From the NCBI GenBank assembly GCA_023474215.1, contig JAMCYI010000006.1:1452-65451 (forward strand): DNA of 64,000 nt. Reading direction: 5' to 3'. The DNA is from Patescibacteria group bacterium. Lineage in GTDB: Bacteria; Patescibacteriota; Minisyncoccia; UBA6257; GWB1-50-10. The notes under the pieces are model-generated. The model ran no database searches, was not told the origin of the DNA, and saw nothing but the letters and a program-made list of their open reading frames with translations. Positions 26,721-63,962 of the stretch are shown piece after piece. Positions within the stretch are counted from its first letter, which is position 1. The number at the start of each line of letters is the position of its first letter. The translations under genes were made by a program, and so were the position numbers.

Positions 26721-27620
26721 CTACTGCACCGCAAACACGCCGATGTTTCCGGCCGCTGTTTTTTCCACTTTAACAATCCCCTCTTCGTCGGTCCGAAAAA
26801 CCCGTACACCGACCGCACCGAGTGCGGATACCGTCTCCGCCGACGGATGTCCGTAGGAATTTTTTCCGACTTCGATCACTGCAATGCTCGGAGAAACTAT
26901 ACTGAAGAATCTTTTCGACAACGACCCCTTCGAGCCGTGATGAGCAACCTTCAAAACATCTACACGACCGATGCGGACGGCAAGCGTTTCTTCGATCTTC
27001 AAACTCGCATCGCTCATAAAGGCCGATTTTATATCTTCCGCATCGACCTTAATAACGATCGCCGAATCGTTCAAATCGTCTCCGGCAAGAAGCGTCTCAT
27101 TGGGCGAAAGAATGCGAATTTCCGTTTTACCGATCATTATCCGGTCGCCTTCCGCAACGACGAGCGAAGCGACATTCTCTTCGTTTAAAATTTTTTTGAA
27201 AGCTTCGAACGTTTCCGTCCCGCCGCCGATGCCGTTCCATAGAAATAAACCGACGTGATAGTTCTTTACGACATCCATAAGCCCGCCGAAGTGGTCGATC
27301 TGAGCATGCGTCATAATGACGATGTCGATGGAACGATCAAAAGGGGGAAGGATCGCATCCAGCGATTCCAAAACCGCGGAGTTCGCCGGACCGCCGTCGA
27401 TCAAAATCTTCGCTCCGCTCGCCGTCACAATAAGCTCGCTGTCCCCTTCGCCGACCGGCAGGAAATATTCGGCAAACGAATTTTTCCCGCCGGCTGCACC
27501 GAGAGAAAGGACGCTGATCACAACGACAACCAAAAGAAACGGCAAGAATTCTTTGAAATGTCTTTCAACGAAGTCAACGACAATCTTTAATTCCTTTGTG
27601 CAACCCTTTTCTTCCTCCAT
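26721..27620 (-). CDS. ComEC C-terminal-type metallo-beta-lactamase-fold domain protein (HAQIDHFGG)
   Basis: MBL motif 'MTHAQIDHFGG', a later 'HHGS'. One TM helix at the N-terminus. Overlaps the upstream ComEC membrane-domain ORF. Confidence 0.6.
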   Translation of the reverse strand: MEEEKGCTKELKIVVDFVERHFKEFLPFLLVVVVISVLSLGAAGGKNSFAEYFLPVGEGDSELIVTASGAKILIDGGPANSAVLESLDAILPPFDRSIDIVIMTHAQIDHFGGLMDVVKNYHVGLFLWNGIGGGTETFEAFKKILNEENVASLVVAEGDRIMIGKTEIRILSPNETLLAGDDLNDSAIVIKVDAEDIKSAFMSDASLKIEETLAVRIGRVDVLKVAHHGSKGSLSKRFFSIVSPSIAVIEVGKNSYGHPSAETVSALGAVGVRVFRTDEEGIVKVEKTAAGNIGVFAVQ

Positions 27621-30389: not shown

Positions 30390-30956
30390 ATGGCACGGTT
30401 ATCCTACAACGAACTCAAAGTCGGCACAATCTTCGTGAAAGATGGGGCTCCGTACAAGGTCCTCGATTCGGCATTCGTCCGCATGCAACAGCGGAAACCC
30501 GTCATGCAACTCAAGATCGAAAACCTCGTGAGCGGCAAGGTGCAGGAATATGCAGCTCACCAAAACGAGGAATTCGAAGAAGCGGAGATCGAAGTGATGC
30601 CGGTCGTTTTTATTTATCAAAACCGTGGCGAATACTGGTTCAATGAAAAGGGTAATCCGAAAAACCGATTTCAACTGAAGGACGACATTTTGGGACGGGC
30701 GGCCCAATTCTTGAAAGCAAATACGGAACTCACCGCTTATAAATTCGACGGAAAGATCATCAACATCGAACTGCCGATCAAAATGGATCTCAAAGTGACC
30801 GAAGCGCCACCCGCCATCAAGGGCAATACCGCGCAAGGCGGCACCAAAACGGTAACCCTTGAAACCGGCGCAAAAGTGAACGTTCCCCTCTTCGTGGAGG
30901 AAGACGACACCGTGAAGGTCAACACGCAAACCGGCGAGTATATCGAACGGCTTTAA
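30390..30956 (+). CDS. efp: elongation factor P
   Basis: 188 aa with the KPGKG-like region 'RMQQRKPVMQLKIEN' and overall EF-P sequence. Confidence 0.9.
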   Translation: MARLSYNELKVGTIFVKDGAPYKVLDSAFVRMQQRKPVMQLKIENLVSGKVQEYAAHQNEEFEEAEIEVMPVVFIYQNRGEYWFNEKGNPKNRFQLKDDILGRAAQFLKANTELTAYKFDGKIINIELPIKMDLKVTEAPPAIKGNTAQGGTKTVTLETGAKVNVPLFVEEDDTVKVNTQTGEYIERL

Positions 30957-32689
30957 GAACCGAGGTTCTTTAAGGACTCTTTAAGCGACTCGCGGAGCGA
31001 TTCGATGTCGTGATTCCCCTCTTTGGGTCCTTTTGCCGATTTTGTCTCTTCTTTTAAATCCGCAAGTGAAATGGTTCCGGTATCCGGAGGTGTTTCCGGT
31101 GCCTCATCCCCGCCCACAATGGTTTGTTTTCTGGTATTCACGGGTTTTTGCACCGGCGATTGTCGCCTAAAATTATTCAAAAAAGGACGCCTTCGCTCGT
31201 AGTGACCATTATGACTCGCGTGACTCGGCGCAGAAGTCCGTCCGGCAGGATGCATTCCCGACGCTCCTCCTCCCTGATTTTCCTGAAATTCTATGCCGAG
31301 CTTCGCGAGGTCGGAAAATCTCGAGGCGGTCTCCTTTTCTTCGTGCCGATGCTCGAACCTCCGTTCCGTCATCCCTTCCTCCTTGGGAGCCATAACACCA
31401 CTCCATCGGTTTATTTCTTCCTCCACGGCCCACCGCGGACGGGCGTAGATTCTCCGCGACGTTTCGATGATTTTCTCCGCGATTGCCGGGGATGATTCCA
31501 AATTGAACGGCGGCAAGGTTGTCGCCGAGAAAGGACGTGACGTGACGCCATCCACCAAAAGTTTCAAATAGACATGGTAGTTGGGTAGGTTGACGAGATC
31601 TTGCGCCATGAACTCGGGCTCGAATTCTTTTTCCAAAAATTCCGCATCGGCCGCTCCAACCCGAAACGAGACCATGGTGCCGACGTTGCCGAACACGGCA
31701 TCGCGCACCTTCGTCGAAACGTCCGTCACAAGCTGCCCGACGTACTGGTGAGCAAGAATCAAGTCGAGGCGATATTTTCGCGCCTCGGACAAGATGTTCG
31801 CAAACGAGTCGGTGGCAAAATTTTGGAACTCGTCGACATAAAGATAGAAGTCGACGCGTTCGTCTTCCGGGATCCTCACCCGCTCCATGGCCGCAAGCTG
31901 CATCTTCGTGATGAGCATGGATCCCAAGAGTGCCGAGTTGTCTTCCCCAATCCTCCCTTTCGATACGTTCACGAGGAAAATCTTCCCCGTGTTCATAATG
32001 TCGAAGATATCGACGGTACTCTTCGATTGGCCAACGATGTTCCGTACGAGCGCAGTCGAAAGGAATTGGCCGACCTTGTTTTGAATCGGCGCGATGGCTT
32101 CATTCCGGAACTGGTCGCGCCATTCTTCGAACTCGTTCACCCAAAACGCCTTGACGACCGGATCTTTGATGTTGTCCACGATCTTTTGCCGATATTCCTT
32201 GTCGACTAAAATACGCGTGATGCCGAGCAAGGTCGTCCCGGGCGTATCGAGGAGCGCGAGGATGGCGTTGTTCAAAATGTATTCCATTCTCGCCGACCAA
32301 ACGTTCGACCAAATCTTCGTGAAAATGCCCATGAGGCCTGACGCGACCAAGTGCTTGTATTTCGGATCGGGCAGTTCCAAAACATTGAAGCCGATGTGAA
32401 AATCGGTATCGGCCGGATTGAAGTAAATGACGTCCTGCAACCGTTCCTCGGGAATTTTCTCGAGAAGTCCTTCGACGAGTTCGCCGTGAGGGTCGACGAC
32501 GCACAATCCTTCACCGTTCGCGATGTCCTGCACAATCAAGTTATTGAGCATCGCCGTCTTTCCGGTGCCCGTTTTTCCGATGACGTACATGTGCTGACGC
32601 CGGTCGCGGCGCTTGATGCCGAAAAGCTTGTTCGAGTTCCGGAAATCAACTCTCCCGAAGTATGCTACGTCTTTGTCGTTCTCGGCCAT
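30953..32689 (-). CDS. VirD4/TraD/TrwB-like type IV coupling-protein-family P-loop ATPase (paralog of 59733..61190)
   Basis: Walker A 'VIGKTGTGKT', Walker B 'LYVDEFQNF', 'LAHQYVGQL'. The C-terminal region is basic and low-complexity. Confidence 0.6.
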   Translation of the reverse strand: MAENDKDVAYFGRVDFRNSNKLFGIKRRDRRQHMYVIGKTGTGKTAMLNNLIVQDIANGEGLCVVDPHGELVEGLLEKIPEERLQDVIYFNPADTDFHIGFNVLELPDPKYKHLVASGLMGIFTKIWSNVWSARMEYILNNAILALLDTPGTTLLGITRILVDKEYRQKIVDNIKDPVVKAFWVNEFEEWRDQFRNEAIAPIQNKVGQFLSTALVRNIVGQSKSTVDIFDIMNTGKIFLVNVSKGRIGEDNSALLGSMLITKMQLAAMERVRIPEDERVDFYLYVDEFQNFATDSFANILSEARKYRLDLILAHQYVGQLVTDVSTKVRDAVFGNVGTMVSFRVGAADAEFLEKEFEPEFMAQDLVNLPNYHVYLKLLVDGVTSRPFSATTLPPFNLESSPAIAEKIIETSRRIYARPRWAVEEEINRWSGVMAPKEEGMTERRFEHRHEEKETASRFSDLAKLGIEFQENQGGGASGMHPAGRTSAPSHASHNGHYERRRPFLNNFRRQSPVQKPVNTRKQTIVGGDEAPETPPDTGTISLADLKEETKSAKGPKEGNHDIESLRESLKESLKNLGS

Positions 32690-38697: not shown

Positions 38698-40473
38698 CTA
38701 AGATACTTCCTTCTGGTAGCATTCCTCGCAGTATACGATCTCGGGGCGGTCGGGGGCGTAGGTCGATTCGAACTCGTTCGGACAATGGCCGTCGCCATGC
38801 GCGTGGGACACGGTATTTTGATACACGCCGTTCTCAGATCTCGTTCCGGCGCATTGGCACTTCCGATGCCAAAGATCCAACGGATTCCTCTTCCGCAGCC
38901 GGTCGAAATGCCGGCAGTTGGGGCAGAGGCGCGGCAAGGCGACGCCCATTTTTTGATAGAGCGACAGCTCTTCGGCCGTCATACGGAAAGCCGTCGTGCA
39001 CTGCTCCGTGCACTTGCCGGCATGAGCGCACTCAATGATATTTTTCAGGATGTTTTCATCCGCCGCTTTTATGTCGTCCGGGATATCGGCGTTCTTCATC
39101 GTTACCTGATAGTTCCTCCCTTCGGGGTCCTTCCATGCGTATCCTTTCGCGAGCGCTTCTTCTTTCGCGAGCGGGAAATATTCGATCGCAACCGTTTCGT
39201 TGTACGCGAAGGGCGAGAGGTCCGGCGGGAAGAACTCGCCATAGCCGTATGTTCTCCCCTTCTGGTCCACATACGGCATATCCTTCATATGCTGAATAAG
39301 CTTCGGAACCAGAGCTTCGTACTCTTCCTTGGCATATTGCTTGTTCAAAATGCAGTAGTGTTTATCCTTCATACCGACGCATCCGAAGAGATTCGAAGAA
39401 CGTTCGCAATTAATGGAATGGTAAATATCATTTCCATTAATGACGATCCATGATCCCACAATGCGGCTTCCGGGATAAATGCTCATCGAATTGTAGACCA
39501 GCTCGCTCTTCAGACCCATGTGGCTCGACGAATGGCTGTCCTTCGCGCCCGCCGCAACGAGGAACATGTCGCGGCAATCCTCCGTGCCGTCGAAGACCTC
39601 GAACGACCGGTGCACGTTCTTCGAATTGAAGATGTTGTCGCCGGTGCAATTGAGCGAATTGATGATGCGGTACGGCCGCACGATGTTTTTCAGGCGCTCT
39701 TTCGCGAACCGCTCTTTCGTTTCCGTAAGCGTCCGGTAGCTTCCGAGATTCATTTCGCCGACGAGCTTCTTGTATTCTTCCGGCGTCTTCCGCTCGCCGA
39801 AATAGTAATATTTCTGATTCCGCAGGTTCACCGATCCGAAGCAATCCGTGCAGCCGTTCAAATCGAATCCGAATTTCACGTCGACACAGTTGTTGAGGAA
39901 TCCGCCGAACGCCGATCGGGAACAATTCTCCGAATCGGTCAGCTCGTAGGAGAGCTCGGCCCGCGTCACCCAGTAGAGCTCCATCGCATTCTTGCAGTGG
40001 AAATTGAACGTCGCATGGAGGCAATCCTCGTTGAAATCGCCGCCGAAAACCATATAGCAATTCTTGTTGCTCTCGGTGAAATTGCAATATTCACTGTTGA
40101 CGCCGTTCCAGTTGTTGAGCGAAGCGAATGGCACGTCGTGCATTAGTTCCTTGATCTGCTGGAACAAGGGCCGCGAAAAATCAACGTCGCGTCCGTATTC
40201 GGTCGGGTCCCACGAATCGCCGTGCCAGACGCTCTGTTCGTATACCTTGAAATCCTTTTCCGGAGAATAAATGGAAAGGATGTCCTTGCCGGTCTTGGAA
40301 TCCTTCCGCCGGTAGAGGTTCCGCTCGTTGCGGAACGCCAAGCGCTGCTGAAGCCGGCAGTCGGGACAAAGCGTCTCTGCCGGCACCTTCATCATCTCGA
40401 AAAAGCTGAAATCGTCCGCTTCGAGCGTGAAATCTTGCTTGCAGTTTTGGCATTGCCGAATTTCCGAAGTCAT
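38698..40473 (-). CDS. Cys-rich multi-zinc-ribbon paralog family, member 1 of 10 (591 aa). Family not recognised.
   Basis: N-terminal CQNC..F.LE..DF.F...KVP..T.CPDCR.QQR.AFRNER.LY. Duplicated internal module '..CFGC..LR.K.YCILNKQYAKEEYEALVPKL'. C-terminal LCPNCRH..RL..RNP..LWHRKCQC...CPNEFE..YAPDRPE.VYCEECY. Confidence 0.6.
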   Translation of the reverse strand: MTSEIRQCQNCKQDFTLEADDFSFFEMMKVPAETLCPDCRLQQRLAFRNERNLYRRKDSKTGKDILSIYSPEKDFKVYEQSVWHGDSWDPTEYGRDVDFSRPLFQQIKELMHDVPFASLNNWNGVNSEYCNFTESNKNCYMVFGGDFNEDCLHATFNFHCKNAMELYWVTRAELSYELTDSENCSRSAFGGFLNNCVDVKFGFDLNGCTDCFGSVNLRNQKYYYFGERKTPEEYKKLVGEMNLGSYRTLTETKERFAKERLKNIVRPYRIINSLNCTGDNIFNSKNVHRSFEVFDGTEDCRDMFLVAAGAKDSHSSSHMGLKSELVYNSMSIYPGSRIVGSWIVINGNDIYHSINCERSSNLFGCVGMKDKHYCILNKQYAKEEYEALVPKLIQHMKDMPYVDQKGRTYGYGEFFPPDLSPFAYNETVAIEYFPLAKEEALAKGYAWKDPEGRNYQVTMKNADIPDDIKAADENILKNIIECAHAGKCTEQCTTAFRMTAEELSLYQKMGVALPRLCPNCRHFDRLRKRNPLDLWHRKCQCAGTRSENGVYQNTVSHAHGDGHCPNEFESTYAPDRPEIVYCEECYQKEVS

Positions 40474-40598: not shown

Positions 40599-42341
40599 TT
40601 ACACTACCTCCGCGTTATAGCACTCTTCGCAGTAGACCGTTTCTGGCCGGTCGGGAGCGAACGCCGTCTCAAATTCGTTCGGACACTTTCCCGAATGGCC
40701 GTGATTGGACTTATCGCACATGCAAGAGCGACGCCAGAGCTTGAGGGGCGTTCCCTGCTTCAGGCGCTCGTAGTGCCGGCAGTTCGGACAGAGATGCGGA
40801 AGCGGCAAATCCATCCTCCTCAAGAACTGCAACTCCGGAGCGATGATCCTGAACGCGCCCGTGCATTGCTCGCCGCATTTTCCTCCGTGAGGGCATTCAA
40901 TGATCTGATCCAGAATATCGTCTTCTACACCCTTAATATCGTCAGGCAATTCGCTCGCTTTCATTGAAACCGCATAATCTTTCGCCGCCGCGTTTTCCCA
41001 CTGATATTTCTCTTCCGCCGCTCCTTCCGCCGTCAGCGGGAAATACTCCTCAGCGATCGTCTCGTTGTACGCGAAGGGCGAGATCTCGATCGGGAAGAAC
41101 TCTCCGTATTTATATATTCTCCCCTTCTCGTCTGCATACGGCATCTCGTCCATGTGTTTTTTGATCTTCGGGATCAGGGCCTCGTATTCCTCCTTGGAGT
41201 ACTGCTTGTTCAGGATGCAAAAATCCTTTTTCCGCACGCCGACGCACCCGAAAAGATTGGACCCTCCCCGGCAGTAATCCGAATACTCCACGTTCACGAT
41301 ATTCTCGTAGGTATTCGAGGAGAAGAAATTGCGGGAATCGTGATAAGCGACATTGACCCCCTCGTAACTCAGTTCCCCGCCGTCCCCCGCGCCGTGGAGG
41401 TCCATGCAGTCCTTGATCTTGAGTGCCTGCGTGCAATACCGCAGGTTTTCGCATTCATCGATGTTGAACGATTTGAAAATGTTTTTGGAATTGATGATAT
41501 GGTTGCCGCTCACGTTCACAACCTTATTCGTGAACGCAAACCTCTGGATGGAATTCTTCTTCAGTTCGGCATACTCGCCCTTGAGCGACTCGATGGTTTT
41601 CGCACTCCCCAATCCTATCCTTTTCAGCCTTTCTTCGTAATCCTCTTTGGTAAGCTGTTCGCCCCGGAATACATATGATTTGTTTCTCAAATTGGACCCC
41701 ATGAAACAGCTCTTGCAGCCCGCGCAGTTGTACAGAAAATAAGAATCCATGCAGTCGCGGCAATTCTGGAGGTAGGCGGAATGGACCGCATGGTTGGTAT
41801 CCATAGATTCATAGCAAAATTCCGAATCGGTAACGACATTCGAGTCAAAGACGTCGCGATCGTGGAATGCTTTATGGCTGTAAGCGATATTTTCGGAATA
41901 AAAAGTCGAAGGCGCCATATAGACATCTTTCGAAAGCCACGTGAAATTGGAGTAGGGCGCATTCTGATTTTGAAGGCTTTCCAAGGCCAGACGGGGAACC
42001 TCCGCTAAAAGCTCCCGGAATTGCTCGAAGAACGGCTTCGAGAAATCGTAGTCGCGGCCGTACGACATGACGTCCCATTTATCGGAAAACCAGCAGTCGT
42101 AGCAGTGAACTTTAAACGGCCGGTCTCCGGAGTACATCGAGATGATGGATTTGCCGCAAAGATCGCACGTATCCTTGTACAAACTGCGTTCGTTCCGGAA
42201 CGCCATTCGCCGCTGCCGCCGGCATTCCGGGCACCAGGTTGGCGGAGGAACTTCGATCTTCTCGTAGAATGCGAAATCCTCCGGCTCAACCGTGAACTCT
42301 TTTTTGCAATTCTGGCAGGTTCTGGTTTCGGCTTTGGTCAT
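40599..42341 (-). CDS. Cys-rich multi-zinc-ribbon paralog family, member 2 (580 aa)
   Basis: Same architecture. The N-terminus MTKAETRTCQNCKKEF and the 5' flank are shared with member 7. Confidence 0.6.
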   Translation of the reverse strand: MTKAETRTCQNCKKEFTVEPEDFAFYEKIEVPPPTWCPECRRQRRMAFRNERSLYKDTCDLCGKSIISMYSGDRPFKVHCYDCWFSDKWDVMSYGRDYDFSKPFFEQFRELLAEVPRLALESLQNQNAPYSNFTWLSKDVYMAPSTFYSENIAYSHKAFHDRDVFDSNVVTDSEFCYESMDTNHAVHSAYLQNCRDCMDSYFLYNCAGCKSCFMGSNLRNKSYVFRGEQLTKEDYEERLKRIGLGSAKTIESLKGEYAELKKNSIQRFAFTNKVVNVSGNHIINSKNIFKSFNIDECENLRYCTQALKIKDCMDLHGAGDGGELSYEGVNVAYHDSRNFFSSNTYENIVNVEYSDYCRGGSNLFGCVGVRKKDFCILNKQYSKEEYEALIPKIKKHMDEMPYADEKGRIYKYGEFFPIEISPFAYNETIAEEYFPLTAEGAAEEKYQWENAAAKDYAVSMKASELPDDIKGVEDDILDQIIECPHGGKCGEQCTGAFRIIAPELQFLRRMDLPLPHLCPNCRHYERLKQGTPLKLWRRSCMCDKSNHGHSGKCPNEFETAFAPDRPETVYCEECYNAEVV

Positions 42342-42390: not shown

Positions 42391-44133
42391 CTACACGACT
42401 TCGGCGTTGAAGCATTGTTCGCAATAGATGACCTCCTTCCTCTCGGGCGCGTAGCTCGTCTCGAACTCGTTCGGGCACGGTTTGCCTCCGTGGAAATGAG
42501 TTTTCAAATCACACATGCACGTACGGTGCCACAATTTCATGGGATTCCGCTGTTTCAAGCGTTCGTAGTGCCGGCAGTTCGGGCATAACCGAGGCAGGGA
42601 CAGATTCATCCGCTTATAGAATTGAAGTTCCTGGGGAGCAATCTTAAAGGCGCCGACACACTGATGGAGACATTTCCCCTCGTGCGCACACCCGATAACC
42701 TCGTTCACGATGGAGTCGGTGACGTCTTTGATATTGTCCGGAAGATCCCGAGAAAGAATGGTTGTTTTGTATTCCTTTATGTCTAGATCTTTCCACCGAT
42801 ATCCTCGGCTTATCGCTTCTTCCTTCATAAGGGGGAAATATTCCTGCGCGATGGTTTCGTTATAGGCGAAAGGAGAAATTTCCGGCGGAAAGAATTCACC
42901 GTAGCGGTATACTCTCCCCTTCTTGTCGATGTAAGGAACATCATTCATCTGTTTTATGATTTCCGGGATCAACTCCTCGTATTCTTCCTTCGCGTACTGC
43001 TTATTCAGGATGCAGTATTGCTTGCTTCGGAGACCGATACAGCCGAAACAATCATTACATCCGTGGCAGTTGTAACTGTAGAGAATATTCTTTCCGCCCC
43101 AAACGACAATGTCATTCACCAAACGATGAGCCTTCAGCCCAGAATCGATGATCTCGTAGCCCAATTCGAGGTCGCCCGGGCCATAACTGTCATAAATGTC
43201 ACTCATGACGACGCCGCCGTTCATGGTATATTTGCAATCTTTTGCGTTATCGAAAAGGTCGAAGCAAGACTTGCAGTTTTTTACGTTCGTCAAATTGTCG
43301 CCCGTCGAATCCGGCGCGTTTACCAAAAAAGCGAATTTGCGGATCGCTTTCAACTTAAGGGCATCAAAATCGCGCTTGAGCCGTTCGAGTTCTTGGTAAC
43401 TCCCCAGATTGAATTTTTTCAGTTCCCTTGCGTACCCCTCCGAAGAGTACTGCTTATTGAACATGCAATAACTCTTATTCCTCAAATTCGAACACCCGAA
43501 GCAGTTCGAGCATCCTTTGCAGTTATAGAGAAAATACGAATTGTTGCATGAATCGCAATTATCGGAAAAAAAAGTGCGGTACAATTTCATACCCGTGATG
43601 GTCTCGTAGCAAAGTTCGAGATAGGAGGACGACAAAACATCAAGGGAGTCCTTCGACATCCACGCTTTATTCGCATACATCACCCGCTCGTTCATCCACG
43701 AGCCGAACACCAGGTAGCAATCCTTGGAACGCCCGCTATGATTGGTGTATTCGCAGTTCTCGGACTGGGCATTGAAGATCGCCGGCATTGGCGCGCGTTC
43801 GAGAAGCAACCGGAATTGATCAAAGAACGTCTCCTTGAAATCATAGGGGCGGCCGGAACCAAGCGGGTCCCACTGATCGCTCCACCAAACATCACGATCA
43901 TACACCGTCACCTTGGCATCCGGCGAAAAGATAGAAATGACCCGTTTCCCCGTCAGGTCACAATTCCTCTGATAGAGCGAACGTTCATTCCGCCACGTCA
44001 TCTTGCGCATCAGGCGGCAATCCGGGCAGAAGGTCGGCGGCGGAACCTTGATCTTTTCATAGAAAGAAAGGTCCTCGGCTTCGATCGTGAACTCCCGGTG
44101 GCAATTCTGGCACGTCTTTTTCCTCGATTCCAT
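42391..44133 (-). CDS. Cys-rich multi-zinc-ribbon paralog family, member 3 (580 aa)
   Basis: Same architecture. Confidence 0.6.
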   Translation of the reverse strand: MESRKKTCQNCHREFTIEAEDLSFYEKIKVPPPTFCPDCRLMRKMTWRNERSLYQRNCDLTGKRVISIFSPDAKVTVYDRDVWWSDQWDPLGSGRPYDFKETFFDQFRLLLERAPMPAIFNAQSENCEYTNHSGRSKDCYLVFGSWMNERVMYANKAWMSKDSLDVLSSSYLELCYETITGMKLYRTFFSDNCDSCNNSYFLYNCKGCSNCFGCSNLRNKSYCMFNKQYSSEGYARELKKFNLGSYQELERLKRDFDALKLKAIRKFAFLVNAPDSTGDNLTNVKNCKSCFDLFDNAKDCKYTMNGGVVMSDIYDSYGPGDLELGYEIIDSGLKAHRLVNDIVVWGGKNILYSYNCHGCNDCFGCIGLRSKQYCILNKQYAKEEYEELIPEIIKQMNDVPYIDKKGRVYRYGEFFPPEISPFAYNETIAQEYFPLMKEEAISRGYRWKDLDIKEYKTTILSRDLPDNIKDVTDSIVNEVIGCAHEGKCLHQCVGAFKIAPQELQFYKRMNLSLPRLCPNCRHYERLKQRNPMKLWHRTCMCDLKTHFHGGKPCPNEFETSYAPERKEVIYCEQCFNAEVV

Positions 44134-44182: not shown

Positions 44183-45985
44183 TTATACTTTCTCCTTCTG
44201 GTAGCATTCGGCGCAATAAACAATATCGGGCCTCTCCGGTGCGAAGCTCGTCTCGAACTCATTCGAACAATGCCCATCGCCGTGTGCATGCTTCGAGAGA
44301 TTTGTATAGACGTAACTTGTTTCCTGCCCTGAGCCTGTCGAAGGGTCGCTTGCTGCTCCCCCACACTGGCATTTCCGATGCCACAGCTTGAACGGATTCC
44401 TTAATGCCAGGCGCTCGTAGTGCCGGCAGTTCGGACAGAGGCGCGGGAGGGGCAGGTTGAATTTGCGGTAGAAATCCAATTCTCCGGGAATGATTTTGAA
44501 GGCCTCGGTGCACTGATGGGTGCACTCACCCTTATGCGCACAGCCGATCACTTCTTTCAGAATATCGTCCGACACATCTTTGATGTGGTCGGGAAGATCT
44601 TCCGCTTCCACCGTGACGGCGTATTCCTTTTTTCCGAGATTCTTCCATACATACTTCTTCGAGAGTGCCTCTTCCTTTTTTAACGGGAAATATTCCTGCG
44701 CGAGGGTCTCGTTGTACGCGAAGGGTGATATTTCATGCGGGAAAAATTCGCCGTACGCGTATTTCCTTCCGGCTGCGTCCACGTACAGCGTTGCGTTCAT
44801 CTGTGCGATAATCTTCGGGACCAATGCTTCATATTCATTCTTGGAGTACTGTTTGTTCAAAATGCAGTATTCTCTGCTTCGCAAACCAACGCAGCCGAAG
44901 AGATGCGAGGAGGTGTGACAGCAATAGACGTATTGGACGTCATGGCAGCCGTGCGTATAAACGGTGAATTTGTAGTTCGACCCATTGATGCCTGAGTCGA
45001 CGCCTTCATACAGCAGTTCGCCGTTCGCCCCGAATCCGTACCCGTCGTATGAATCCTTGAGATCGATGGCGTGGATGGCGTATTTGGAATCCTCCGTTCC
45101 GCCGTAGCCGTCAAAACACTCTTTGCAGTTCTTGGCATCGCCGACATGGTCCCCCGTCGTACCAGCGCATCGGAGGAACGCCGCAAATTCCCGCGGAAAT
45201 TTGCGGTGGAATTCCTCGAACTCTTTCTTGAACGCTTCGAGATTCTGATAGCTTCCGAAATCGTATTTGGCCCGTTCTTTTTGGTATTCTTCTTTTGAGT
45301 ATTGCTCGTTGAAGATGCAGTATTGCTTGTTCCTCAAGTTGACGCATCCGAGCGAATTGTTCGTGTTGGTGCAATGCCGGAGGAACATCGAATCCATACT
45401 TTGTCCCGCATCGTACGAGAAAAACACCCGATTCAAGTTGTCAGAGAGCGTATCCTCATAGCAAAGCTCGGCCTTCAAATCATTGTAGAGATCCATCGAG
45501 TCCTTCCCTTCCACGATGCCACTCGAGAACGAAACGTTATCGCACTCATAGGAGGCATAGAGAAGATAGCAATCCTTCGAATCGGCATTGTGGTTCCCGT
45601 AATCGCTCCGTGTGACGTTGGTATTCGCGAGATTGGGAAGCGGCGCTTGGTGCAGGAGTTCTCTATACTGCTCAAAAAACGGACGCGAGAAATCATAGTC
45701 GCGGCCCGACTGGAGATTATCCCATTTGTCGCTCCACCAATAATCCCGATCGTAGACGACCATGTTGCTCTCAGGTGAGAACATCGTGAGAAATTCCTTT
45801 CCCGTCGCTGCACACTTCCCCTTGTAGAGCGTCCGCTCATTTCGCCACGTGAACCTCCTTTGCATCCGGCAATCCGGACAAAACGTGGGTGGTGGTACTT
45901 GAATCCTTTCATAGAAACTGAAATCCTCGGGTTCGATAACGAACTCTTTCTTGCAGTTTTGGCAGGTTTTCGATTCGGCAGCCAT
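44183..45985 (-). CDS. Cys-rich multi-zinc-ribbon paralog family, member 4 (600 aa)
   Basis: Same architecture. The C-terminus 'HAHGDGHCSNEFETSFAPERPDIVYCAECYQKEKV' and the 3' flank are shared with member 1. Confidence 0.6.
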   Translation of the reverse strand: MAAESKTCQNCKKEFVIEPEDFSFYERIQVPPPTFCPDCRMQRRFTWRNERTLYKGKCAATGKEFLTMFSPESNMVVYDRDYWWSDKWDNLQSGRDYDFSRPFFEQYRELLHQAPLPNLANTNVTRSDYGNHNADSKDCYLLYASYECDNVSFSSGIVEGKDSMDLYNDLKAELCYEDTLSDNLNRVFFSYDAGQSMDSMFLRHCTNTNNSLGCVNLRNKQYCIFNEQYSKEEYQKERAKYDFGSYQNLEAFKKEFEEFHRKFPREFAAFLRCAGTTGDHVGDAKNCKECFDGYGGTEDSKYAIHAIDLKDSYDGYGFGANGELLYEGVDSGINGSNYKFTVYTHGCHDVQYVYCCHTSSHLFGCVGLRSREYCILNKQYSKNEYEALVPKIIAQMNATLYVDAAGRKYAYGEFFPHEISPFAYNETLAQEYFPLKKEEALSKKYVWKNLGKKEYAVTVEAEDLPDHIKDVSDDILKEVIGCAHKGECTHQCTEAFKIIPGELDFYRKFNLPLPRLCPNCRHYERLALRNPFKLWHRKCQCGGAASDPSTGSGQETSYVYTNLSKHAHGDGHCSNEFETSFAPERPDIVYCAECYQKEKV

Positions 45986-46009: not shown

Positions 46010-47752
46010 TTATACTATCTCTTTCTGGTAGCACTCCTCACAGTAAACCCTCAAGTGCAATTCAGGGTCATAAGCCGTCTTGATATCTTTCCCGCAGTTG
46101 GAGCAATGAGATCCAAAAAGATCATACGGGCTTCTTTTTCTGAAGCGGTTCAGCAATCTGGTTCGGGGATGCAAGAGCGGCACCGGGATTGAATGTTTCC
46201 GGTAGAAGTCGAATTCCTGCTTGGTTATCTTGAAAGGTTTTCTCGAGACCTCACAAATAATGGTTGAATCCAGTATCGAATCAGCGACATTCTTTATGTT
46301 ATCCGGTATGTTATTAGCGGCCGGAGACGCTTCAGGCGCTTTCTCGTTCTTGAGGCGGGGTTTCATTGTGCTGTACCTATTTTCATCAAGAGGACACAGG
46401 GCTCCGGCATAACTGTCTTCATAAAAGAAGAACGCGTTACCAAGCGGCAAGAATTCGCCGTAACCACCTCCCTGAACCATGCTTGTTTTTATTTCATCAA
46501 CCAGTTTCCAATATTCGTCTTCGGAGTACTGTTTATTCAAAATACAGTATTTCTTTTTGCTGAGTCCGCTGCAACCAAAACAATACTGGCAATCGGAACA
46601 CTCGAATGAGTACTCGGTCTCCAGGCAGTTTTCCACGAAGTAAGAAGCTATTACCCTGTTGACGGATAAGGCCTCAATGACGTTATAGCATTCTTGCCCC
46701 GGCCCGAAGATCGTGACATCCATGCAATCCGTAGCGCCGATGAAGTCCTGCCCATAGCGGATGTTTTCGTTTTTATAAAAAGTTAAAAGGAATTTGGCGC
46801 TGGTACCCCAGAAGGACTGAACACAATTCTTGCAGTCTCTCAAGTGGTCACCCAAAGAGCCGGGGGAATTCTTTGCCCAGAGGGCCTTAAAAATGCCGTT
46901 GGTACGCAGGAATTCATCGAACTTCTTCTTGTACTCTTCGCGTATTTTTCTGCTCCCCAAATCAATCTCCGCCATCCTCTTTTCATAGTCCTCTTTCGAA
47001 AGCTGCTCGTTGAAGAAGCAGAATTTTTTATTCCTTAAGTTACTGCACCCGAAGCAGTTCTGGCAGTTATGGCAGTCAAAGAGGAAATACGAATTGATGC
47101 AGTCGCTGGAATTTTGAATATGCTGGGAATTGTGGATGCGGTCCGAGTCGATGATTTCGTAAGAATCCTGGACGTGGTCTGCAGACGACAAATCAAGCGA
47201 ATTCTGTGAATAAATCACCCAAAAGCCGTACGAAACGTCTTGAGCCATGCCGATGATCGAGGAAAGATAACAGTTTTTGACATCGAAACTCTGAACGGTG
47301 TATTCGCTGTTCACAATATCTTTGTTGTACCTTGCGAGAGCCCGGTGAGGCACCGCTCTTAAGAGATCAATGAACTGGCTCGAAAAATCGCGGTTCGCAT
47401 CATAATTTTGCCCGAAGGTGAGCGGATCCCACGCGTCCGACCACCAAAATTTATTGTCGTAGATCCGGTATTCGTTCTCCTCGGACATTTGAGACAATGC
47501 TTTTTCTTCCGGATGGGCAAAACAGGTCTTCTTGTAGAACTGGAAAATGCTTCCCGACATCGCGGTCCTTTTTATCATCCTGCACTTCGGACATTCTCTC
47601 GGCGGTAAAACGTTCAACTTGCGGCAGAAATCGATGTCCTCCGAAAAAATCTCAAAGCCTGAACCGCACATCGTGCATATGCGCGAGCCCGGTTTCGCTT
47701 CATTCAAAACCTTCCCAATCACCGCATCAAATTTTGGTGTTTTATCCTTCAT
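46010..47752 (-). CDS. Cys-rich multi-zinc-ribbon paralog family, member 5 (580 aa), the most divergent copy
   Basis: Retains the WWSDAWDP, '..CFGCS.LR.K.FCF.NEQLSKEDYE', 'KKYCILNKQYSEDEY' and terminal CxxC pairs, but has a different N-terminus. Confidence 0.55.
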   Translation of the reverse strand: MKDKTPKFDAVIGKVLNEAKPGSRICTMCGSGFEIFSEDIDFCRKLNVLPPRECPKCRMIKRTAMSGSIFQFYKKTCFAHPEEKALSQMSEENEYRIYDNKFWWSDAWDPLTFGQNYDANRDFSSQFIDLLRAVPHRALARYNKDIVNSEYTVQSFDVKNCYLSSIIGMAQDVSYGFWVIYSQNSLDLSSADHVQDSYEIIDSDRIHNSQHIQNSSDCINSYFLFDCHNCQNCFGCSNLRNKKFCFFNEQLSKEDYEKRMAEIDLGSRKIREEYKKKFDEFLRTNGIFKALWAKNSPGSLGDHLRDCKNCVQSFWGTSAKFLLTFYKNENIRYGQDFIGATDCMDVTIFGPGQECYNVIEALSVNRVIASYFVENCLETEYSFECSDCQYCFGCSGLSKKKYCILNKQYSEDEYWKLVDEIKTSMVQGGGYGEFLPLGNAFFFYEDSYAGALCPLDENRYSTMKPRLKNEKAPEASPAANNIPDNIKNVADSILDSTIICEVSRKPFKITKQEFDFYRKHSIPVPLLHPRTRLLNRFRKRSPYDLFGSHCSNCGKDIKTAYDPELHLRVYCEECYQKEIV

Positions 47753-48092: not shown

Positions 48093-49784
48093 CTATCCAA
48101 CCTCCGCATTATAACAGCTTTCACAATACACAATCTCCGGACGTTCGGGGGCGTACGAGGTTTCAAATCCATTTTGACACGAGCTGGAATGATTGTGATT
48201 TTGCTTATCACACATACAACTCCTGTGCCAAAGCTTCACGGGGTTTTTGAGCTTCAACCGATCCTTGAGCCGGCAGAAAAAGCACCTTCGCGGCACCGGG
48301 ATGCCATTCTTTTTGTAGAACGCCAGCTCTTCGGCGATGACTTTGTAATTTCTCCCGCATTCCATACAAGCGAGAATTTCATCCACGATTGAATCGGGTA
48401 CGTCACTGATCGCGTCGGGGATTTCTCGCATTGTCTCTTTTCCCGTCGTGAATTGGAGCTTGTCTTGCCATCGATACCCTTTCGCGAGCGCTTCGTCTTT
48501 CGTAAGCGGATAGCTGTCCTGCGCGAGAGTTTCGTTGTATCCGAAAGTGGAAAGCGGCACCGGGAAAAACTCGCCCCATTCCCCTCTTTTTTTCATATTC
48601 TCTATGATTTCCGCCTTGAGCTTCTCATACGATCCTTTGTCGTACTGTTTGTTCAAGATGCAGTACTTGGCGCTCTTCAAGCCCACACATCCAAAAAGTT
48701 CTTCCGACGATTGGCAACTGTCTGCATAGAGAACGTTCCGATCCTTATGGCAGTACGACGTGAAATGCGTACCGTACGAATTATCCGGATTGATTCCTTC
48801 GTAGCAAAGCTCCTGCTCGCCCCCGCTTGCGCAGTCGTAACTGTCTTTGATCGTGTCGCCATTCTCGAAGAATTTCGAATCCTCGACGCGGACAGCATTC
48901 CAGCAATTCAGAGCATTTTTCGAATTCACAAGATAATTTCCCGTGCAATTTACGCAATTCATGAAATTCGCCGGTCTTCGCGGGAATTTCAGTATGAAAC
49001 CGAAAAACTCCTTTTTAGCCCGTTCCGATCCGCTCCACGTGTCGAGCCGGTAACCGGCCACTATTTTTCCATACTCCTCTTTCGAGTACTGCTCGTTCTT
49101 CACACAGTACTTTTTGTGGCGGAGGCCGATCGACATAAAGCAGTCGGTGCAATCCTTGCAGTCGTAGCAGAAAGCGCAATCGATGAGCGATTCCGAATTG
49201 AAGATGAATCGGCACGAATTACTCTCTCCCACGTAAATCGACTCGTAGATATTCCGGGCATTCGAGAAAACCGTCATCACGTCCACCATATCCTTCGCGT
49301 TCACCATATGGTAGCAATACATGCAATTCTCCACTTTCCATGAGTTCATCGTGAGGTAACAGTTTTTGCCGAGGGCGAAGTAGTTCGTGTATTCGCACCC
49401 GACGCTCGCGATGTTGTTGTCGTTCAGAATCGCGAGAGCCGGCACGGTATCAAGAAGTTCCCGATACTGTTCGAAGAACGGCCGCGAGGGATCGTAATCC
49501 CGCCCGTACTGTCCAGGATCCCAGCCATCGCTCCACCAGCACTTATTGCAGTAGATCGGAACGAGCTTCTCCGGCGAGTAGATAGAAATGATTTTTCGGC
49601 CGCAGAGCCCGCACTCGCGATTATAGAAATTGTAGTCGTTCCGCCAGGCAAGCCGCCGCTGCCTCCGGCAGTCGGGGCATTGGGTCGCCGCCGGTACGCC
49701 GATGCGGTTATAAAAAGAAAAGTCATCAGGTTCGATGACGAACTCCTGACGGCAGTTTTGGCAGCTTTTTGTTTCCGGACTCAT
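48093..49784 (-). CDS. Cys-rich multi-zinc-ribbon paralog family, member 6 (563 aa)
   Basis: Same architecture. ATGA overlap with member 7. Confidence 0.6.
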   Translation of the reverse strand: MSPETKSCQNCRQEFVIEPDDFSFYNRIGVPAATQCPDCRRQRRLAWRNDYNFYNRECGLCGRKIISIYSPEKLVPIYCNKCWWSDGWDPGQYGRDYDPSRPFFEQYRELLDTVPALAILNDNNIASVGCEYTNYFALGKNCYLTMNSWKVENCMYCYHMVNAKDMVDVMTVFSNARNIYESIYVGESNSCRFIFNSESLIDCAFCYDCKDCTDCFMSIGLRHKKYCVKNEQYSKEEYGKIVAGYRLDTWSGSERAKKEFFGFILKFPRRPANFMNCVNCTGNYLVNSKNALNCWNAVRVEDSKFFENGDTIKDSYDCASGGEQELCYEGINPDNSYGTHFTSYCHKDRNVLYADSCQSSEELFGCVGLKSAKYCILNKQYDKGSYEKLKAEIIENMKKRGEWGEFFPVPLSTFGYNETLAQDSYPLTKDEALAKGYRWQDKLQFTTGKETMREIPDAISDVPDSIVDEILACMECGRNYKVIAEELAFYKKNGIPVPRRCFFCRLKDRLKLKNPVKLWHRSCMCDKQNHNHSSSCQNGFETSYAPERPEIVYCESCYNAEVG

Positions 49785-53303: not shown

Positions 53304-53373
53304 AATGAGGTAAATGCCTTTTTTCTTGGGCCTTAGTTCAATTTCCACAGTAAGAACGATTATATCACACTGA

Positions 53374-59589: not shown

Positions 59590-59743
59590 CAATGCTCAAA
59601 ATCCTAATTTCAAAATCCTAAATCCTAAATAAACCCCCCAATACTCTAAATTCAAAATTCTAAACGCATGTTTTGGTCATTAAAATTTGTATTTCGATAT
59701 TGTTCAGGATTTGGTGCTTAGGATTTAGAATTTTAAACCAGGG
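59590..59743. repeat. second copy of the ~150-bp inverted-repeat AT-rich element (see 14225..14356)
   Basis: Aligns with the first copy at roughly 80% identity. Same orientation on the + strand although the flanking genes are on the opposite strand. Confidence 0.55.
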
Positions 59744-61190
59744 GCTCCGGTGTTTGATCGTTCGCGTCGGCGGGCTTCCCCGTGATAGCTGCCTTTTCTT
59801 GAGCGCTCCGCCAAATGCCGGCTTCTTCCTCGGCGATAAGTTTTTTCGCGGCATCCGCCGAAATGGAATATTTTTCGCGCGAACGTTTGATAATCTCGTC
59901 CTTGAACGAGGGATGGGTCGGCGGCAAAACGCGCAACGTTTCCGCCGAGAATGGATCGTAGGTTTCGCCGTCAATCGTCATTTTGATGTAAATTTGGCCC
60001 ATGCCGAGATTGATCATATCCTTCACGTCAAAAACCGGCGCCATTTCCGGCTTCAGCTTTACCGCATCTTCACCGCCGACACGGAAAATAATGATAGTTC
60101 CGGTATTCCCCAAAACGGCGGCTTGCACCTTCGGCAGCAGCTGTCCGACGTACTGGTGGGCAACGGTAAGGCAAAGGCCGTACTTCCTGGCTTCCGACAA
60201 AAGGTTTTCGAACGTATCGGTCACGAGATTCTGAAACTCATCGACATACAGATAAAAGTCGTTCCGCTCGGCTTGCGGCAAGGTTGCCCGCGCCATACCC
60301 GCTTGCTTAATCTTCGTAATGAACATCGATCCGAAGAAGCTTGAATTTTCTTCGCCGATCTTCCCCTTCGAGAGATTGATAAGGATGATCTTTTTGTCGT
60401 TCATTAATTTCTCGAGGTCGATTTTGTTCTCCTTTTGGCCGAAGATGTTCCGGAGCATCGGATTCGAAAGGAATTGGCCGAGTTTGTTCACCAAAGGAAT
60501 GATGGCTTCCGTATCGAATTTCTCCGACCAGTCGGCGAACTCGATAGCCCAAAAGCGTTTCACCATGTCGTCTTCGATGTACTCCACAACCTTTTGGCGG
60601 TAGTTTCGGTCGGAAAGCATCGAAATCATGCCGCGCATCGTAGCATGTGGATAATCGAGGAGTGCAAGGCATGTGAACCGGAATACGTGCTCCAAGCGGG
60701 GCGTCCAGTTCGCGCCGAATTGTTTTTCCATAACCTCGATCAAACCTTGCGTCAGCTGATGTTTGAACGAAGGATCGATGTTTGCAAGCGGGTTGAATGA
60801 TGCCGGATATTCGATATCAGAGGGGTCGATGATGCACACATCGTCGATACGGTTTTCGGGAATGGACGGGAGGATGTCGTCGATGGTATCGCCGTGCGGA
60901 TCGATCAAGCAAAGACCGTACCCGTATTCAATATCCTGCCTGACCAAAAGTTCCATCAGCTTCGATTTGCCGACGCCGCTTTTGCCGATGATATAGGTAT
61001 GCCGGCGGCGATCGACCCGCTTCAGGCCGAAAATGAATTTTTTTTCCTCGAGCGAAGCGACATAGTTCGTCCGGCCGATGTACGATATCTCGGACGGTGA
61101 GATGTTGCCGTAAACCGGGAGTTGCGGCGGCGGCGGCGCATACTTGATGATCTGTAACCTGGTTTGTCTTTGTTGCGGTTGTTGTGCCAT
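59733..61190 (-). CDS. VirD4/TraD/TrwB-like coupling-protein-family P-loop ATPase (second paralog)
   Basis: Walker A 'IIGKSGVGKS', Walker B 'LYVDEFQNL', 'VAHQYVGQL'. Confidence 0.6.
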   Translation of the reverse strand: MAQQPQQRQTRLQIIKYAPPPPQLPVYGNISPSEISYIGRTNYVASLEEKKFIFGLKRVDRRRHTYIIGKSGVGKSKLMELLVRQDIEYGYGLCLIDPHGDTIDDILPSIPENRIDDVCIIDPSDIEYPASFNPLANIDPSFKHQLTQGLIEVMEKQFGANWTPRLEHVFRFTCLALLDYPHATMRGMISMLSDRNYRQKVVEYIEDDMVKRFWAIEFADWSEKFDTEAIIPLVNKLGQFLSNPMLRNIFGQKENKIDLEKLMNDKKIILINLSKGKIGEENSSFFGSMFITKIKQAGMARATLPQAERNDFYLYVDEFQNLVTDTFENLLSEARKYGLCLTVAHQYVGQLLPKVQAAVLGNTGTIIIFRVGGEDAVKLKPEMAPVFDVKDMINLGMGQIYIKMTIDGETYDPFSAETLRVLPPTHPSFKDEIIKRSREKYSISADAAKKLIAEEEAGIWRSAQEKAAITGKPADANDQTPEPLV

Positions 61191-63203: not shown

Positions 63204-63962
63204 CTACGCCTCTCGAACGGAGAACCTGCCGTCATCGAGCTTCTTAAAATGATTCTTATTTTGCAGATTCAAGATGACGGTGTTTTCCTTCACCAACCGC
63301 TGAGCCTTCACAAGTTCAATGATCTTGTCCACCTTTTGAGGCCCATTCTTCTTCAAAAGATCCACCAGAACGTCTTTCACCGTTCCCGGCTCGAAGCCGT
63401 GCTCACGAAGCGCGTACATTCCCCTTCCAACCAAAACAAATCGATGATCTTTAATGAGTTCGTTGTGCACCGTTTGAACATGCGGAACTTTTTTGTCCAA
63501 TCCGTATTTATACGAGTACTTGGCAATGTCCGTGAAGTGGAGCGGCGCTCCGTGCTTCCTTAATACCAAGTAGACTCTGTCGCGGATCGTTTTCGGTTCT
63601 ATTTCCGGCCAGCTTTTAAGGCCGAAATCTCCGAAAATGTTCGTCCCGAAGTGCTTCGGGATCGAGAGGAAATGGCACGATGCAAGATCCTTGCACTGGC
63701 CGAGGTATGACTTACTCGTCAAGATCGCCGTTTTTTCTTTCGTGGTCAAAAACTTCGTCATACCGTTCACGAACTCGAGGAATTTCTTCCGCGCATCGTT
63801 CGTTGCATACCAGTAAGCGTTCATTTTGTCATCTTCCTTGGCATACATCGGTTCGTTGGAGACCAACAAAACGAAGCGCACTTTTTCTTTCGCGTTCTTC
63901 GTCTTTGCGTCGATCTTCAGACCGTAAAGGACGTCGTTTAAAAAATCTTCGTCCAGCTTCAC
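63204..63962 (-). CDS. hypothetical protein, GTG start as called. May extend beyond the window edge.
   Basis: 252-aa ORF. The C-terminal basic region could be nucleic-acid binding. Confidence 0.3.
   Translation of the reverse strand: MKLDEDFLNDVLYGLKIDAKTKNAKEKVRFVLLVSNEPMYAKEDDKMNAYWYATNDARKKFLEFVNGMTKFLTTKEKTAILTSKSYLGQCKDLASCHFLSIPKHFGTNIFGDFGLKSWPEIEPKTIRDRVYLVLRKHGAPLHFTDIAKYSYKYGLDKKVPHVQTVHNELIKDHRFVLVGRGMYALREHGFEPGTVKDVLVDLLKKNGPQKVDKIIELVKAQRLVKENTVILNLQNKNHFKKLDDGRFSVREA

Follow-up and report, generated by a model that had tools for sequence, protein, structure and literature searches.

A Patescibacteria-restricted protein family with predicted zinc-ribbon ends and a duplicated 12-residue-coil centre, encoded near type IV coupling protein-like ATPases

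The 64,000-nucleotide stretch of DNA analysed here, called the window below, comes from a Patescibacteria group bacterium (assembly GCA_023474215.1, contig JAMCYI010000006.1, positions 1,452 to 65,451 of the forward strand). Between positions 38,698 and 58,972 it carries, on the minus strand, a tandem array of ten paralogous genes (Table 1). The open reading frame (ORF) at 38698-40473, the last of the ten, encodes a protein of 591 aa. The paralogs range from 563 to 600 aa and are 31-47% identical to this protein; the gaps between neighbours run from -25 to 340 bp, and together the ten genes amount to 17.4 kb, or 3.7% of the 465-kb source contig. The encoded proteins contain 4.6-6.7% Cys and are acidic (isoelectric point, pI, 5.5-7.6) and hydrophilic (grand average of hydropathy -0.5 to -0.7). 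Because a ribbon begins at about residue 8, no hydrophobic leader is visible and the chains are hydrophilic, they are treated here as cytoplasmic. The proteins are very probably all built to one plan, in which a pair of zinc ribbons at each end encloses two homologous solenoid modules made of 12-residue coils. This architecture has no name in Pfam or NCBIfam and is a new combination of elements of the zinc-ribbon, beta-solenoid and type IV coupling protein (T4CP)-associated kinds.

Table 1. Segments of the protein encoded at 38698-40473, and other features of the window. Residue numbers refer to this protein; ribbon names denote predicted zinc ribbons. Abbreviations are explained in the text.
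Feature	Residues or size	Coordinates	Strand	Remarks
Ribbon 1, zf_Tbcl type	1-52	40318..40473	-	Ligands C8, C11, C36, C39, then basic RRxxxRNER tail; PF13451 18.3 bits
Ribbon 2, degenerate	53-84	40222..40317	-	CxxC-x17-CxxC site gone (D58, T61, E79, V82)
Acidic/aromatic linker	85-126	40096..40221	-	W-x-x-D-x-W-D, DxDFSRPxFxQ; one helix (AlphaFold2, 103-113)
Solenoid module A	127-234	39772..40095	-	Eight or nine 12-residue coils, closing in CFGxxNLRNxxY..(E)EY
Helical connector between modules	235-275	39649..39771	-	AlphaFold2 helices 231-240, 246-260; median net charge +3
Solenoid module B	276-385	39319..39648	-	Homologous to A, with indels; ends in NLFGCVGMKDKHYCILNKQYAKEEYE
Most conserved segment	386-480	39034..39318	-	Helix, PYxDxxGRxYxYGEFFPxxLSPFAYNETxAxEYFPL, LPDxIK
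Ribbon 3, elaborated	481-530	38884..39033	-	Homologous to ribbon 1: C482-x-H484-x3-C488-x3-C492 ... C517-x2-C520-x-H522
Ribbon 4, elaborated	531-591 + stop	38698..38883	-	H536, C539, C541, H557, H559, C564, C582, C585; six-residue tail YQKEVS
Paralog (reference protein)	591 aa	38698-40473	-	Last of the ten
Six further paralogs		40599-42341, 42391-44133, 44183-45985, 46010-47752, 48093-49784, 49781-51550	-	Family HMM 570-968 bits; gaps -4 to 340 bp
Three further paralogs		53733-55463, 55439-57136, 57266-58972	-	Family HMM 699-769 bits
MFS transporter gene		52170-53585	-	Listed start TTG
Terminator-like hairpin		51642-51615	-	Strong; after the MFS gene
62-aa ORF	62 aa	58975-59163	-	Hydrophobic N-terminus
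CutA1 gene		59213-59518	-	Pfam 2e-30
Type-1 T4CP-like (TraD/VirD4/TrwB-type) ATPase, soluble		59733..61190	-	Upstream of array; ends EPLV
Protein s	179 aa	61194..61733	-	Reads as membrane-bound; same-strand upstream in 7 loci, between M and ATPase
Protein M	475 aa	61738..63165	-	N-terminal hydrophobic helices; cytoplasmic domain like the VirB4 N-terminal domain; homologues carry PF26449
HARE-HTH protein		63204..63962	-	Pfam PF05066 3.3e-7; heads the H-M-s-T cluster; same-strand upstream in 9 loci
Type-2 T4CP-like ATPase		30953..32689	-	6 kb downstream of array; long tail reading as low-complexity; Pfam/NCBIfam matches
Apparently split ComEC		26721-29002	-	Competence domain 27587-29002, metallo-beta-lactamase domain 26721-27665, overlap ~80 bp
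ORF	449 aa	9630-10979	-	No Pfam match
ORF	176 aa	30399-30929	-	No Pfam match

The N-terminal unit (residues 1-92) and the C-terminal unit (residues 476-591) are homologous over 74 columns (hhalign 99.2%, E 2e-19; control 2.2%); the initial annotation, made from the letters of this locus, had noted the likeness of their motifs. In each unit a zf_Tbcl-type ribbon comes first and a ribbon of the CxxC-x17-CxxC type second. Conservation and coupling (phi) of the ligands were computed over an alignment of 305 relatives. In ribbon 1 the pattern C8xxC11-x24-C36xxC39 is present in all ten paralogs, each Cys is 98-99% conserved, and a helix (residues 19-28) separates the two pairs in the AlphaFold2 model. 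Every member had been said to begin with CxNC...CPxCR; the frame CxxC-x24-CPxCR is indeed common to all ten, but the Asn is found in nine, the ORF at 46010-47752 having CTMC. Scores against zf_Tbcl (PF13451) exceed the gathering threshold of 24 bits in two paralogs (26.0 and 24.3) and lie below it elsewhere (18.3 for 38698-40473; other scores 13.5-19.9), with no match at E<=1 for 46010-47752. A precomputed PF13451 annotation is carried by some database relatives.

Ribbon 2 is intact in five of the ten paralogs and in 112 of the 305 relatives, and C61, C79 and C82 are present or lost as a block (phi 0.97-1.00; 112 CCCC against 193 lacking the set). The protein encoded at 38698-40473 has lost this site and reads LYRRKD... 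at the position where an LYxRxC motif had been taken as a universal second knuckle. The C-terminal unit had also been drawn too uniformly. Its opening, described as CxHxGKCx2QC in every member, has the form CxHxxxCxxxC in five paralogs; in four others it is a plain CxxC, and in one the site is gone. Likewise, three of the ten have a plain CxxCG in place of the ending WHRxCxC ... HxH ... CPNEFET. The exact CxxC-x17-CxxC spacing occurs in ribbon 4 of three paralogs, and ribbon 4 of 38698-40473 carries an insert. Both C-terminal ribbons are simple in 53733-55463 and 57266-58972, which have four CxxC pairs; 55439-57136 is mixed, with ribbon 3 simple and ribbon 4 elaborated.

Across the relatives, the terminal invariants (C8/C11/C36/C39, C482, C539, C564 and C582/C585) reach 97-100%. 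H484 is coupled to C488 (phi 0.98), and C541, H557 and H559 are coupled to one another (phi 0.92-0.97). The C-terminal unit offers eight Cys/His ligands in the simplest members and fifteen conserved ones in the commonest pattern; eight would suffice for two zinc sites and fifteen for three or more. Each of these sets is either invariant or gained and lost as a whole, as would be expected of metal sites. Zinc binding by a CxxC-x17-CxxC domain was measured by inductively coupled plasma mass spectrometry in small proteins of Methanosarcina (PMC12704099). We infer that the terminal Cys/His sets probably bind zinc, at two sites in the simplest forms and probably at four to six in the commonest, and would thereby rigidify both ends of the protein.

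The terminal domains appear to belong to, or to lie near, known zinc-finger families of uncharacterised function. Ribbons 1 and 3 match PF13451, and the exact spacing of TIGR04272/PF23477 (zf_Tbcl_2), whose members include the zinc-binding small proteins of Methanosarcina mazei, is shared by ribbon 2 and by ribbon 4 in its simple form. The cut-offs of TIGR04272 (36 bits) and PF23477 (27 bits) are not reached by the paralogs: the best scores, 24.4 and 26.4 bits, both belong to 46010-47752, and 38698-40473 matches neither. The weak matches to these two models are assigned to ribbon 4. The present proteins differ from the zf_Tbcl families in three respects: most matches stay below the curated cut-offs, the ribbons cap a large solenoid instead of standing alone, and the C-terminal ribbons of most members are elaborated by the additional coupled His and Cys described above. 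A profile search of PDB sequences returned only a marginal LIM-like match (E 0.047) covering part of one ribbon, in which WHRxCxC ... C-x17-CxxCY aligns with WHxxCFxC..C-x17-CxxCY of CRP1/CRP2. The match is interrupted by the HxH-containing insert, and the likeness is best regarded as a convergence of treble-clef fingers.

Two further properties of the ends bear on their possible function. The median net charge is +2 for ribbon 1 (pI 8.5) and +5 for ribbon 3 (pI 9.3). In addition, 295 of 299 relatives stop exactly six residues past the last CxxC, with a tail of the form Y-[QN]-x-E-[VI]-[VYAI] in which Glu occupies position -3 in 292 of the 295. This points to the free C-terminus as a docking motif.

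Between the terminal units lie module A (residues ~119-241) and module B (residues ~270-392), which hhalign shows to be homologous over 120 columns (99.9%, E 2.7e-34). The twofold occurrence of a motif ..FGC..LRNK.Y....Q(Y)SKEEYE had been noticed initially; the duplication is real, and the extent of the homology makes it far larger than that motif. The acidic and aromatic patches noticed at the same time (WWSDxWDP, DYDFSxPFFEQF and LPDxIKDVxDxIL) are found in the consensus, and W83, D86, W88, D98 and Q106 of the linker are invariant or nearly so in the alignments. Conservation along the protein is 0.33-0.5 in the centre and higher, 0.65-0.8, at residues 360-440 and at the ends. The description of the centre as variable is thus correct, but its supposed swappable character finds no support. 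Despite its variability, the middle is homologous throughout and keeps the same 3- and 12-residue register.

This register was analysed in the 305-sequence alignment. All Cys columns of module A share a single phase of a 3-residue register, the mean Cys fraction of the three phases being 0.30, 0.00 and 0.00. The autocorrelation of the module A profile is positive at all multiples of 3, negative at all other lags, and peaks at lags 12, 24 and 36 (z=12.1 for period 3 and z=8.9 for lag 12/24; the observed values were reached by 0 of 2000 column shuffles). No periodicity is seen in the flanking regions. Arranged in rows of 12 residues, module A yields eight or nine coils of the form C-[YF]-x-[SC]-x-x-[CS]-x-x-[CS]-[KE]-[ND], with the Cys flanked by an Asn/Asp ladder on the one hand and an aromatic ladder on the other. 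In module B, the register is seen only in the last coils (period-3 z=5.6) because of indels.

The central Cys columns are mostly 16-60% Cys, with Ser as the main alternative. The number of central Cys per protein varies from 4 to 31 (median 17), even and odd counts occurring in 153 and 152 proteins respectively, and the coupling of Cys pairs is weak (phi at most 0.51). Together, the Cys-Ser exchange, the variable number, the even/odd parity and the weak coupling indicate that the central Cys probably form an inward-facing ladder of small packing residues in a very narrow beta-solenoid, and not obligate disulfides or conserved clusters. In the last coil of module A, C205, C208, C211 and C214 are 84-93% Cys; module B keeps three of the five equivalent Cys. 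The proposal that the proteins are multi-zinc is therefore acceptable for the termini, with their zf_Tbcl match and all-or-none ligands, but does not extend to the duplicated central Cys module, which is not a conserved metal or redox site.

The AlphaFold2 model, built from a 60-sequence alignment (predicted local distance difference test, pLDDT, 86.2; predicted template modelling score, pTM, 0.86), displays isolated beta-bridges about 12 residues apart. Residues 386-480 are mostly extended and well modelled (pLDDT 92-96), with conservation of 0.70-0.79 and with G412, E413, P416 and Y424 invariant. In a fold search the structural neighbours were solely solenoids, at non-significant scores (best Foldseek match E 0.026, probability 0.18, TM score 0.09-0.14). 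Pfam, NCBIfam, PADLOC and PHROGs gave no match to the central 370 residues and, for the ends of most members, only sub-threshold zinc-finger matches. The central modules are without significant match to any sequence family or solved fold.

The construction of the modules resembles that of the beetle antifreeze proteins, represented by TmAFP of Tenebrio molitor (PDB 1ezg), whose 12-residue coils repeat the unit TCTxSxNCxxAx (PMC8038014). In both cases a small inward residue stands at every third position, four per coil. The likeness is one of construction and not of ancestry, no homology being detectable. TmAFP has a TCT/TxT ice-binding ladder, whereas the rows of the present family show [ND]-C-[YF]. 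Conserved intra-coil disulfide pairs (Cys i, i+6) are found in TmAFP; by contrast, the central Cys of the family are not conserved in pairs, so that disulfides are not obligatory. Moreover, the family is bacterial, apparently cytoplasmic, about 590 aa long and closed by zinc ribbons. An antifreeze function was rejected for want of a TxT ladder and of a visible signal peptide. The hexapeptide-repeat left-handed beta-helix acyltransferases and the curli protein CsgA have coils of 18 or ~20 residues, against 12 in the family; the hexapeptide acyltransferases were rejected for their different period, the absence of their motif and catalytic residues, and the lack of a Pfam Hexapep match.

A profile of the ten paralogs, in a search that reached saturation, retrieved more than 7,000 clusters at 90% identity, all labelled 'hypothetical' and almost none with a precomputed Pfam domain. 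The named sources were all Patescibacteria (Liptonbacteria, Pacebacteria, Brennerbacteria, Parcubacteria and others). An exhaustive hidden Markov model (HMM) search of 1.84 billion representatives (50% identity) gave 5,294 matches at E<=1e-3 and 2,327 at E<=1e-30, nearly all of them 550-600 aa long and matched end to end. A scan of one genome per species located at least 591 loci, almost all in Patescibacteria or in an unclassified 'bacterium'. The lone outlier is a 2.2-kb contig binned in an uncultured Gammaproteobacteria metagenome-assembled genome, and some organism labels among the scanned genomes ('uncultured Candidatus Saccharibacteria') may be inexact. A viral origin was rejected because 2.9 million viral contigs (IMG/VR) held a single partial match. 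The family is large, restricted to Patescibacteria and without a Pfam or NCBIfam name. Literature searches on the family, on PF13451/TIGR04272 and on PF26449 found no description of the architecture or of the T4CP-like link presented below.

Tandem arrays are usual in this family: 53 of 82 loci have two or more copies (nine at most) within ±10 kb, on one strand in nearly all cases. Each paralog of the window has a closer match in another genome than among its siblings (0.61 against 0.47 in one case and 0.57 against 0.36 in another), from which the paralogs are judged to be ancient. A recent lineage-specific expansion or a hypervariable cassette was rejected, since every paralog has closer orthologues in other genomes.

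In the window, the array is interrupted by a major facilitator superfamily (MFS) transporter gene. The first ~95 residues of this ORF are unlike a transporter, and its true start is therefore probably later than the listed one. The hairpin that follows it suggests a division of the array into two or more transcription units. Adjacent paralogs overlap by 4 bp at 49781-49784 and by 25 bp at 55439-55463, which suggests translational coupling inside the array. A promoter and terminator scan was uninformative, promoter-like sites being fewer than in shuffled sequences.

Clustering of the ORFs in 80 family-seeded loci revealed that the commonest neighbour by far is a soluble P-loop ATPase resembling the T4CPs of type IV secretion systems (T4SSs). 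It occurs in 30 of the 80 loci (43 ORFs), on the same strand as the nearest family gene in 41 of 43 cases, either upstream or downstream; the distance is less than 200 bp in 28 of the 43 and less than 800 bp in 38. Three subtypes were distinguished near family genes: type 1 accounts for 22 ORFs, type 2 for 14 and a third type for about six. In a reverse test, in which metagenome contigs were searched with a profile of the type-1 ATPase, a family gene was present in 61 of 80 loci; where at least 2.5 kb was available on both sides the proportion was 33 of 36, within 500 bp in 19. Two gene orders recur, in different lineages. In the first (H-M-s-T-F..F), a helix-turn-helix (HTH) protein, a membrane protein M, a small protein s and a type-1 ATPase precede the family genes, as in the window from 63962 down to 38698. 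The second is DnaK-x-T2-F-(F)-T1-DnaJ. In Nomurabacteria-like genomes, a cassette of a type-2 ATPase, one or more family genes and a type-1 ATPase lies between dnaK and dnaJ (six loci and others), and in four loci DnaJ is less than 50 bp from a family or ATPase gene.

The type-1 ATPase of the window scores above threshold in Pfam TrwB_AAD_bind, T4SS-DNA_transf, TraG-D_C and DUF87, and matches TraD and VirD4-like families of NCBIfam. Unlike canonical coupling proteins, it has no N-terminal transmembrane segment. Its mean column identity across distant Patescibacteria lineages (loci L084-L163) is 77%. The C-terminus of this ATPase is fixed as E-P-[LM]-[IV] in 73 of about 90 copies. Protein M resembles VirB4 and, more weakly, EccE, a component of type VII secretion systems (T7SSs); protein s has no Pfam or NCBIfam match. 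The type-2 ATPase, which in the window is separate from the array, lies directly beside family genes in 14 other loci. One type-2 ORF (among loci L003-L082) carries in its C-terminal tail a CxxC-x17-C remnant (CWICGKEVNVRFKPDDVRPIYC), a ribbon type shared with the family.

The 760-bp gap between the type-1 ATPase and the first family gene contains the 62-aa ORF and the CutA1 gene; the proximity of a divalent-ion-tolerance gene to a multi-zinc family could be meaningful or accidental. The split ComEC is found 2 kb past the second ATPase gene, with MnmA between them. No other T4SS gene was found in the window, the remainder of which is housekeeping, and no tRNA or Rfam family was detected across it. 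The plus-strand GC skew is negative in every 2-kb bin from 1 to 64000, and most of the longest ORFs, including nearly all of those that have family matches, are on the minus strand; two ORFs without Pfam match are listed in Table 1.

T4CP homologues have been surveyed in the Candidate Phyla Radiation (CPR): 5,713 were counted in 2,918 genomes, of which only 148 were near virB4, and exaptation was suggested (10.1101/2025.01.22.634366). A zinc-ribbon partner is not mentioned in that survey.

From the gene neighbourhood, we put at about even the chances that the family is in some way functionally coupled to the T4CP-like ATPase. The fuller reading, that its members are zinc-stabilised cytoplasmic solenoid scaffolds acting as clients or adaptors of a T4SS-derived ATPase module, is held tentatively, at somewhat less than even. 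The family proteins would then be rigid, zinc-capped scaffolds, and their partner a T4SS-derived inner-membrane module composed of a soluble, hexameric-type T4CP-like ATPase, the VirB4-N-like protein M and the small protein s. The conserved parts of the scaffolds, namely the basic ribbons 1 and 3, the segment 360-440 and the E-V-x tail, would dock on the ATPase/M module or on nucleic acid handled by the ATPase. The solenoid surfaces, acidic and divergent among the ancient paralogs, would lend each copy its own specificity, and the paralogs could thus serve as interchangeable clients or adaptors of the ATPase, possibly as cargo.

T4CP adaptor systems are known in Legionella, where DotL works with the adaptors IcmS, IcmW and LvgA and with the zinc-binding DotN. 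Like such adaptors, and like the T7SS arrays found beside the FtsK-like EccC, the family proteins are soluble, without visible signal peptide, often multi-copy, and encoded near an ATPase of the recruiting kind and a membrane partner. However, they have no sequence or fold similarity to DotL adaptors or T7SS substrates, secretion channel genes are not found nearby, and the connection is drawn from gene order.

Several observations weigh against the scaffold and adaptor reading. It is gene order that links the family to the ATPase, and adjacency can persist without shared function because Patescibacterial genomes are streamlined and syntenic. In 50 of the 80 family-seeded loci no T4CP-like gene was within reach, many of these contigs being short, and both sets of loci are the best-scoring 80 of larger hit lists and not random samples. 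The cytoplasmic location is itself a reading of the sequence alone. In the AlphaFold2 model, pLDDT reaches only 67-78 in the coil regions. Finally, the last coil of module A, with its four well-conserved Cys, could hold a metal.

Alternatively, the proteins might be effectors, secreted or injected into the host of the episymbiont by a T4SS-derived or T7SS-like translocase, the array then being an effector arsenal. We consider this unlikely. Acidic proteins with no visible signal peptide and a fixed, conserved extreme C-terminus, encoded in multi-copy arrays beside relatives of T4SS substrate receptors, would suit such a role, as would the resemblance of M to VirB4 and EccE; furthermore, T4SS genes of Saccharibacteria are essential for epibiotic growth (10.1101/2025.01.22.634366). 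On the other hand, a rigid solenoid with up to six zinc sites would be a poor substrate for an unfolding translocase, and the paralogs are ancient and orthologous across genera, without the rapid turnover of an arsenal. No toxin or enzyme domain was found in Pfam, NCBIfam, PADLOC or PHROGs, the window has no channel components (VirB6, VirB8, pilins), and the T4CP is non-essential in Southlakia (same survey).

Somewhat less probable still is a role in handling nucleic acids, with DNA or RNA bound by the basic ribbon pairs. The proteins would then serve to load, guide or protect the nucleic acid that the T4CP-like translocase moves, for example in DNA uptake. Zinc ribbons commonly bind nucleic acids, and the charges of ribbons 1 and 3 agree with this. 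The ATPases have matches to DNA-binding T4CP domains and a weak one to CedD, an archaeal ATPase that translocates DNA, and the split ComEC is close to the second ATPase gene. However, the protein as a whole (pI 5.5-6) and its solenoid modules are acidic, there is no match to a known nucleic-acid-binding domain, and ten diverged paralogs are hard to square with sequence-independent DNA handling.

An anti-phage or conflict system, made of a HerA/FtsK-like ATPase and an array of diversified sensors, is very unlikely. The ATPases do match the PADLOC mad8 and HerA models weakly, and the tandem, diversified paralogs with a variable surface would fit sensors. Yet the family gave no match in PADLOC (four paralogs scanned) or in PHROGs, and effector domains are absent. 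Defence islands tend to be patchy and to evolve fast, whereas the type-1 ATPase is strongly conserved across distant lineages and the paralogs form ancient orthologous groups in conserved gene orders.

Least credible of all is the unusual redox protein offered by the initial annotation, or an Fe-S protein, with central CxxC that would bind clusters or cycle between thiol and disulfide: the high Cys content, the CxxC pairs stacked in successive coils and the well-kept CxxCxxCxxC run closing module A speak for it, but it was rejected in view of the variable, Ser-exchanging and weakly coupled central Cys, the partial loss of the run in module B and the absence of ferredoxin (Fer4), radical-SAM or thioredoxin family matches in Pfam and NCBIfam.

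Returning to the scaffold and adaptor reading, a wider proposition can be formulated, although we regard it as doubtful. The family, the orphan T4CP-like ATPases, M and s would constitute a new, Patescibacteria-wide machine built on a T4SS ATPase core, with the solenoids as its cargo or specificity subunits. The ten paralogs would then be a repertoire handed to the host or capturing material from it, and the solenoid would be the first bacterial cytoplasmic counterpart of the 12-residue helix of beetle antifreeze proteins.

Patescibacteria make up a large share of bacterial diversity, and most of their lineage-specific genes have no assigned function. The present family is among the larger unnamed ones of this group, and ten copies of it are possible in a single tiny genome. 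Its structural model, with ribbon caps and a 12-residue Cys/Ser ladder, is concrete and testable, and explaining the central Cys as a packing ladder removes a misleading redox reading. The orphan T4CP-like ATPases, about two per CPR genome in the recent survey and almost never beside virB4, were left unexplained there. If the linkage described here is functional, it would name the partners of these orphan coupling-protein ATPases of the CPR, and their role would then be directly testable.

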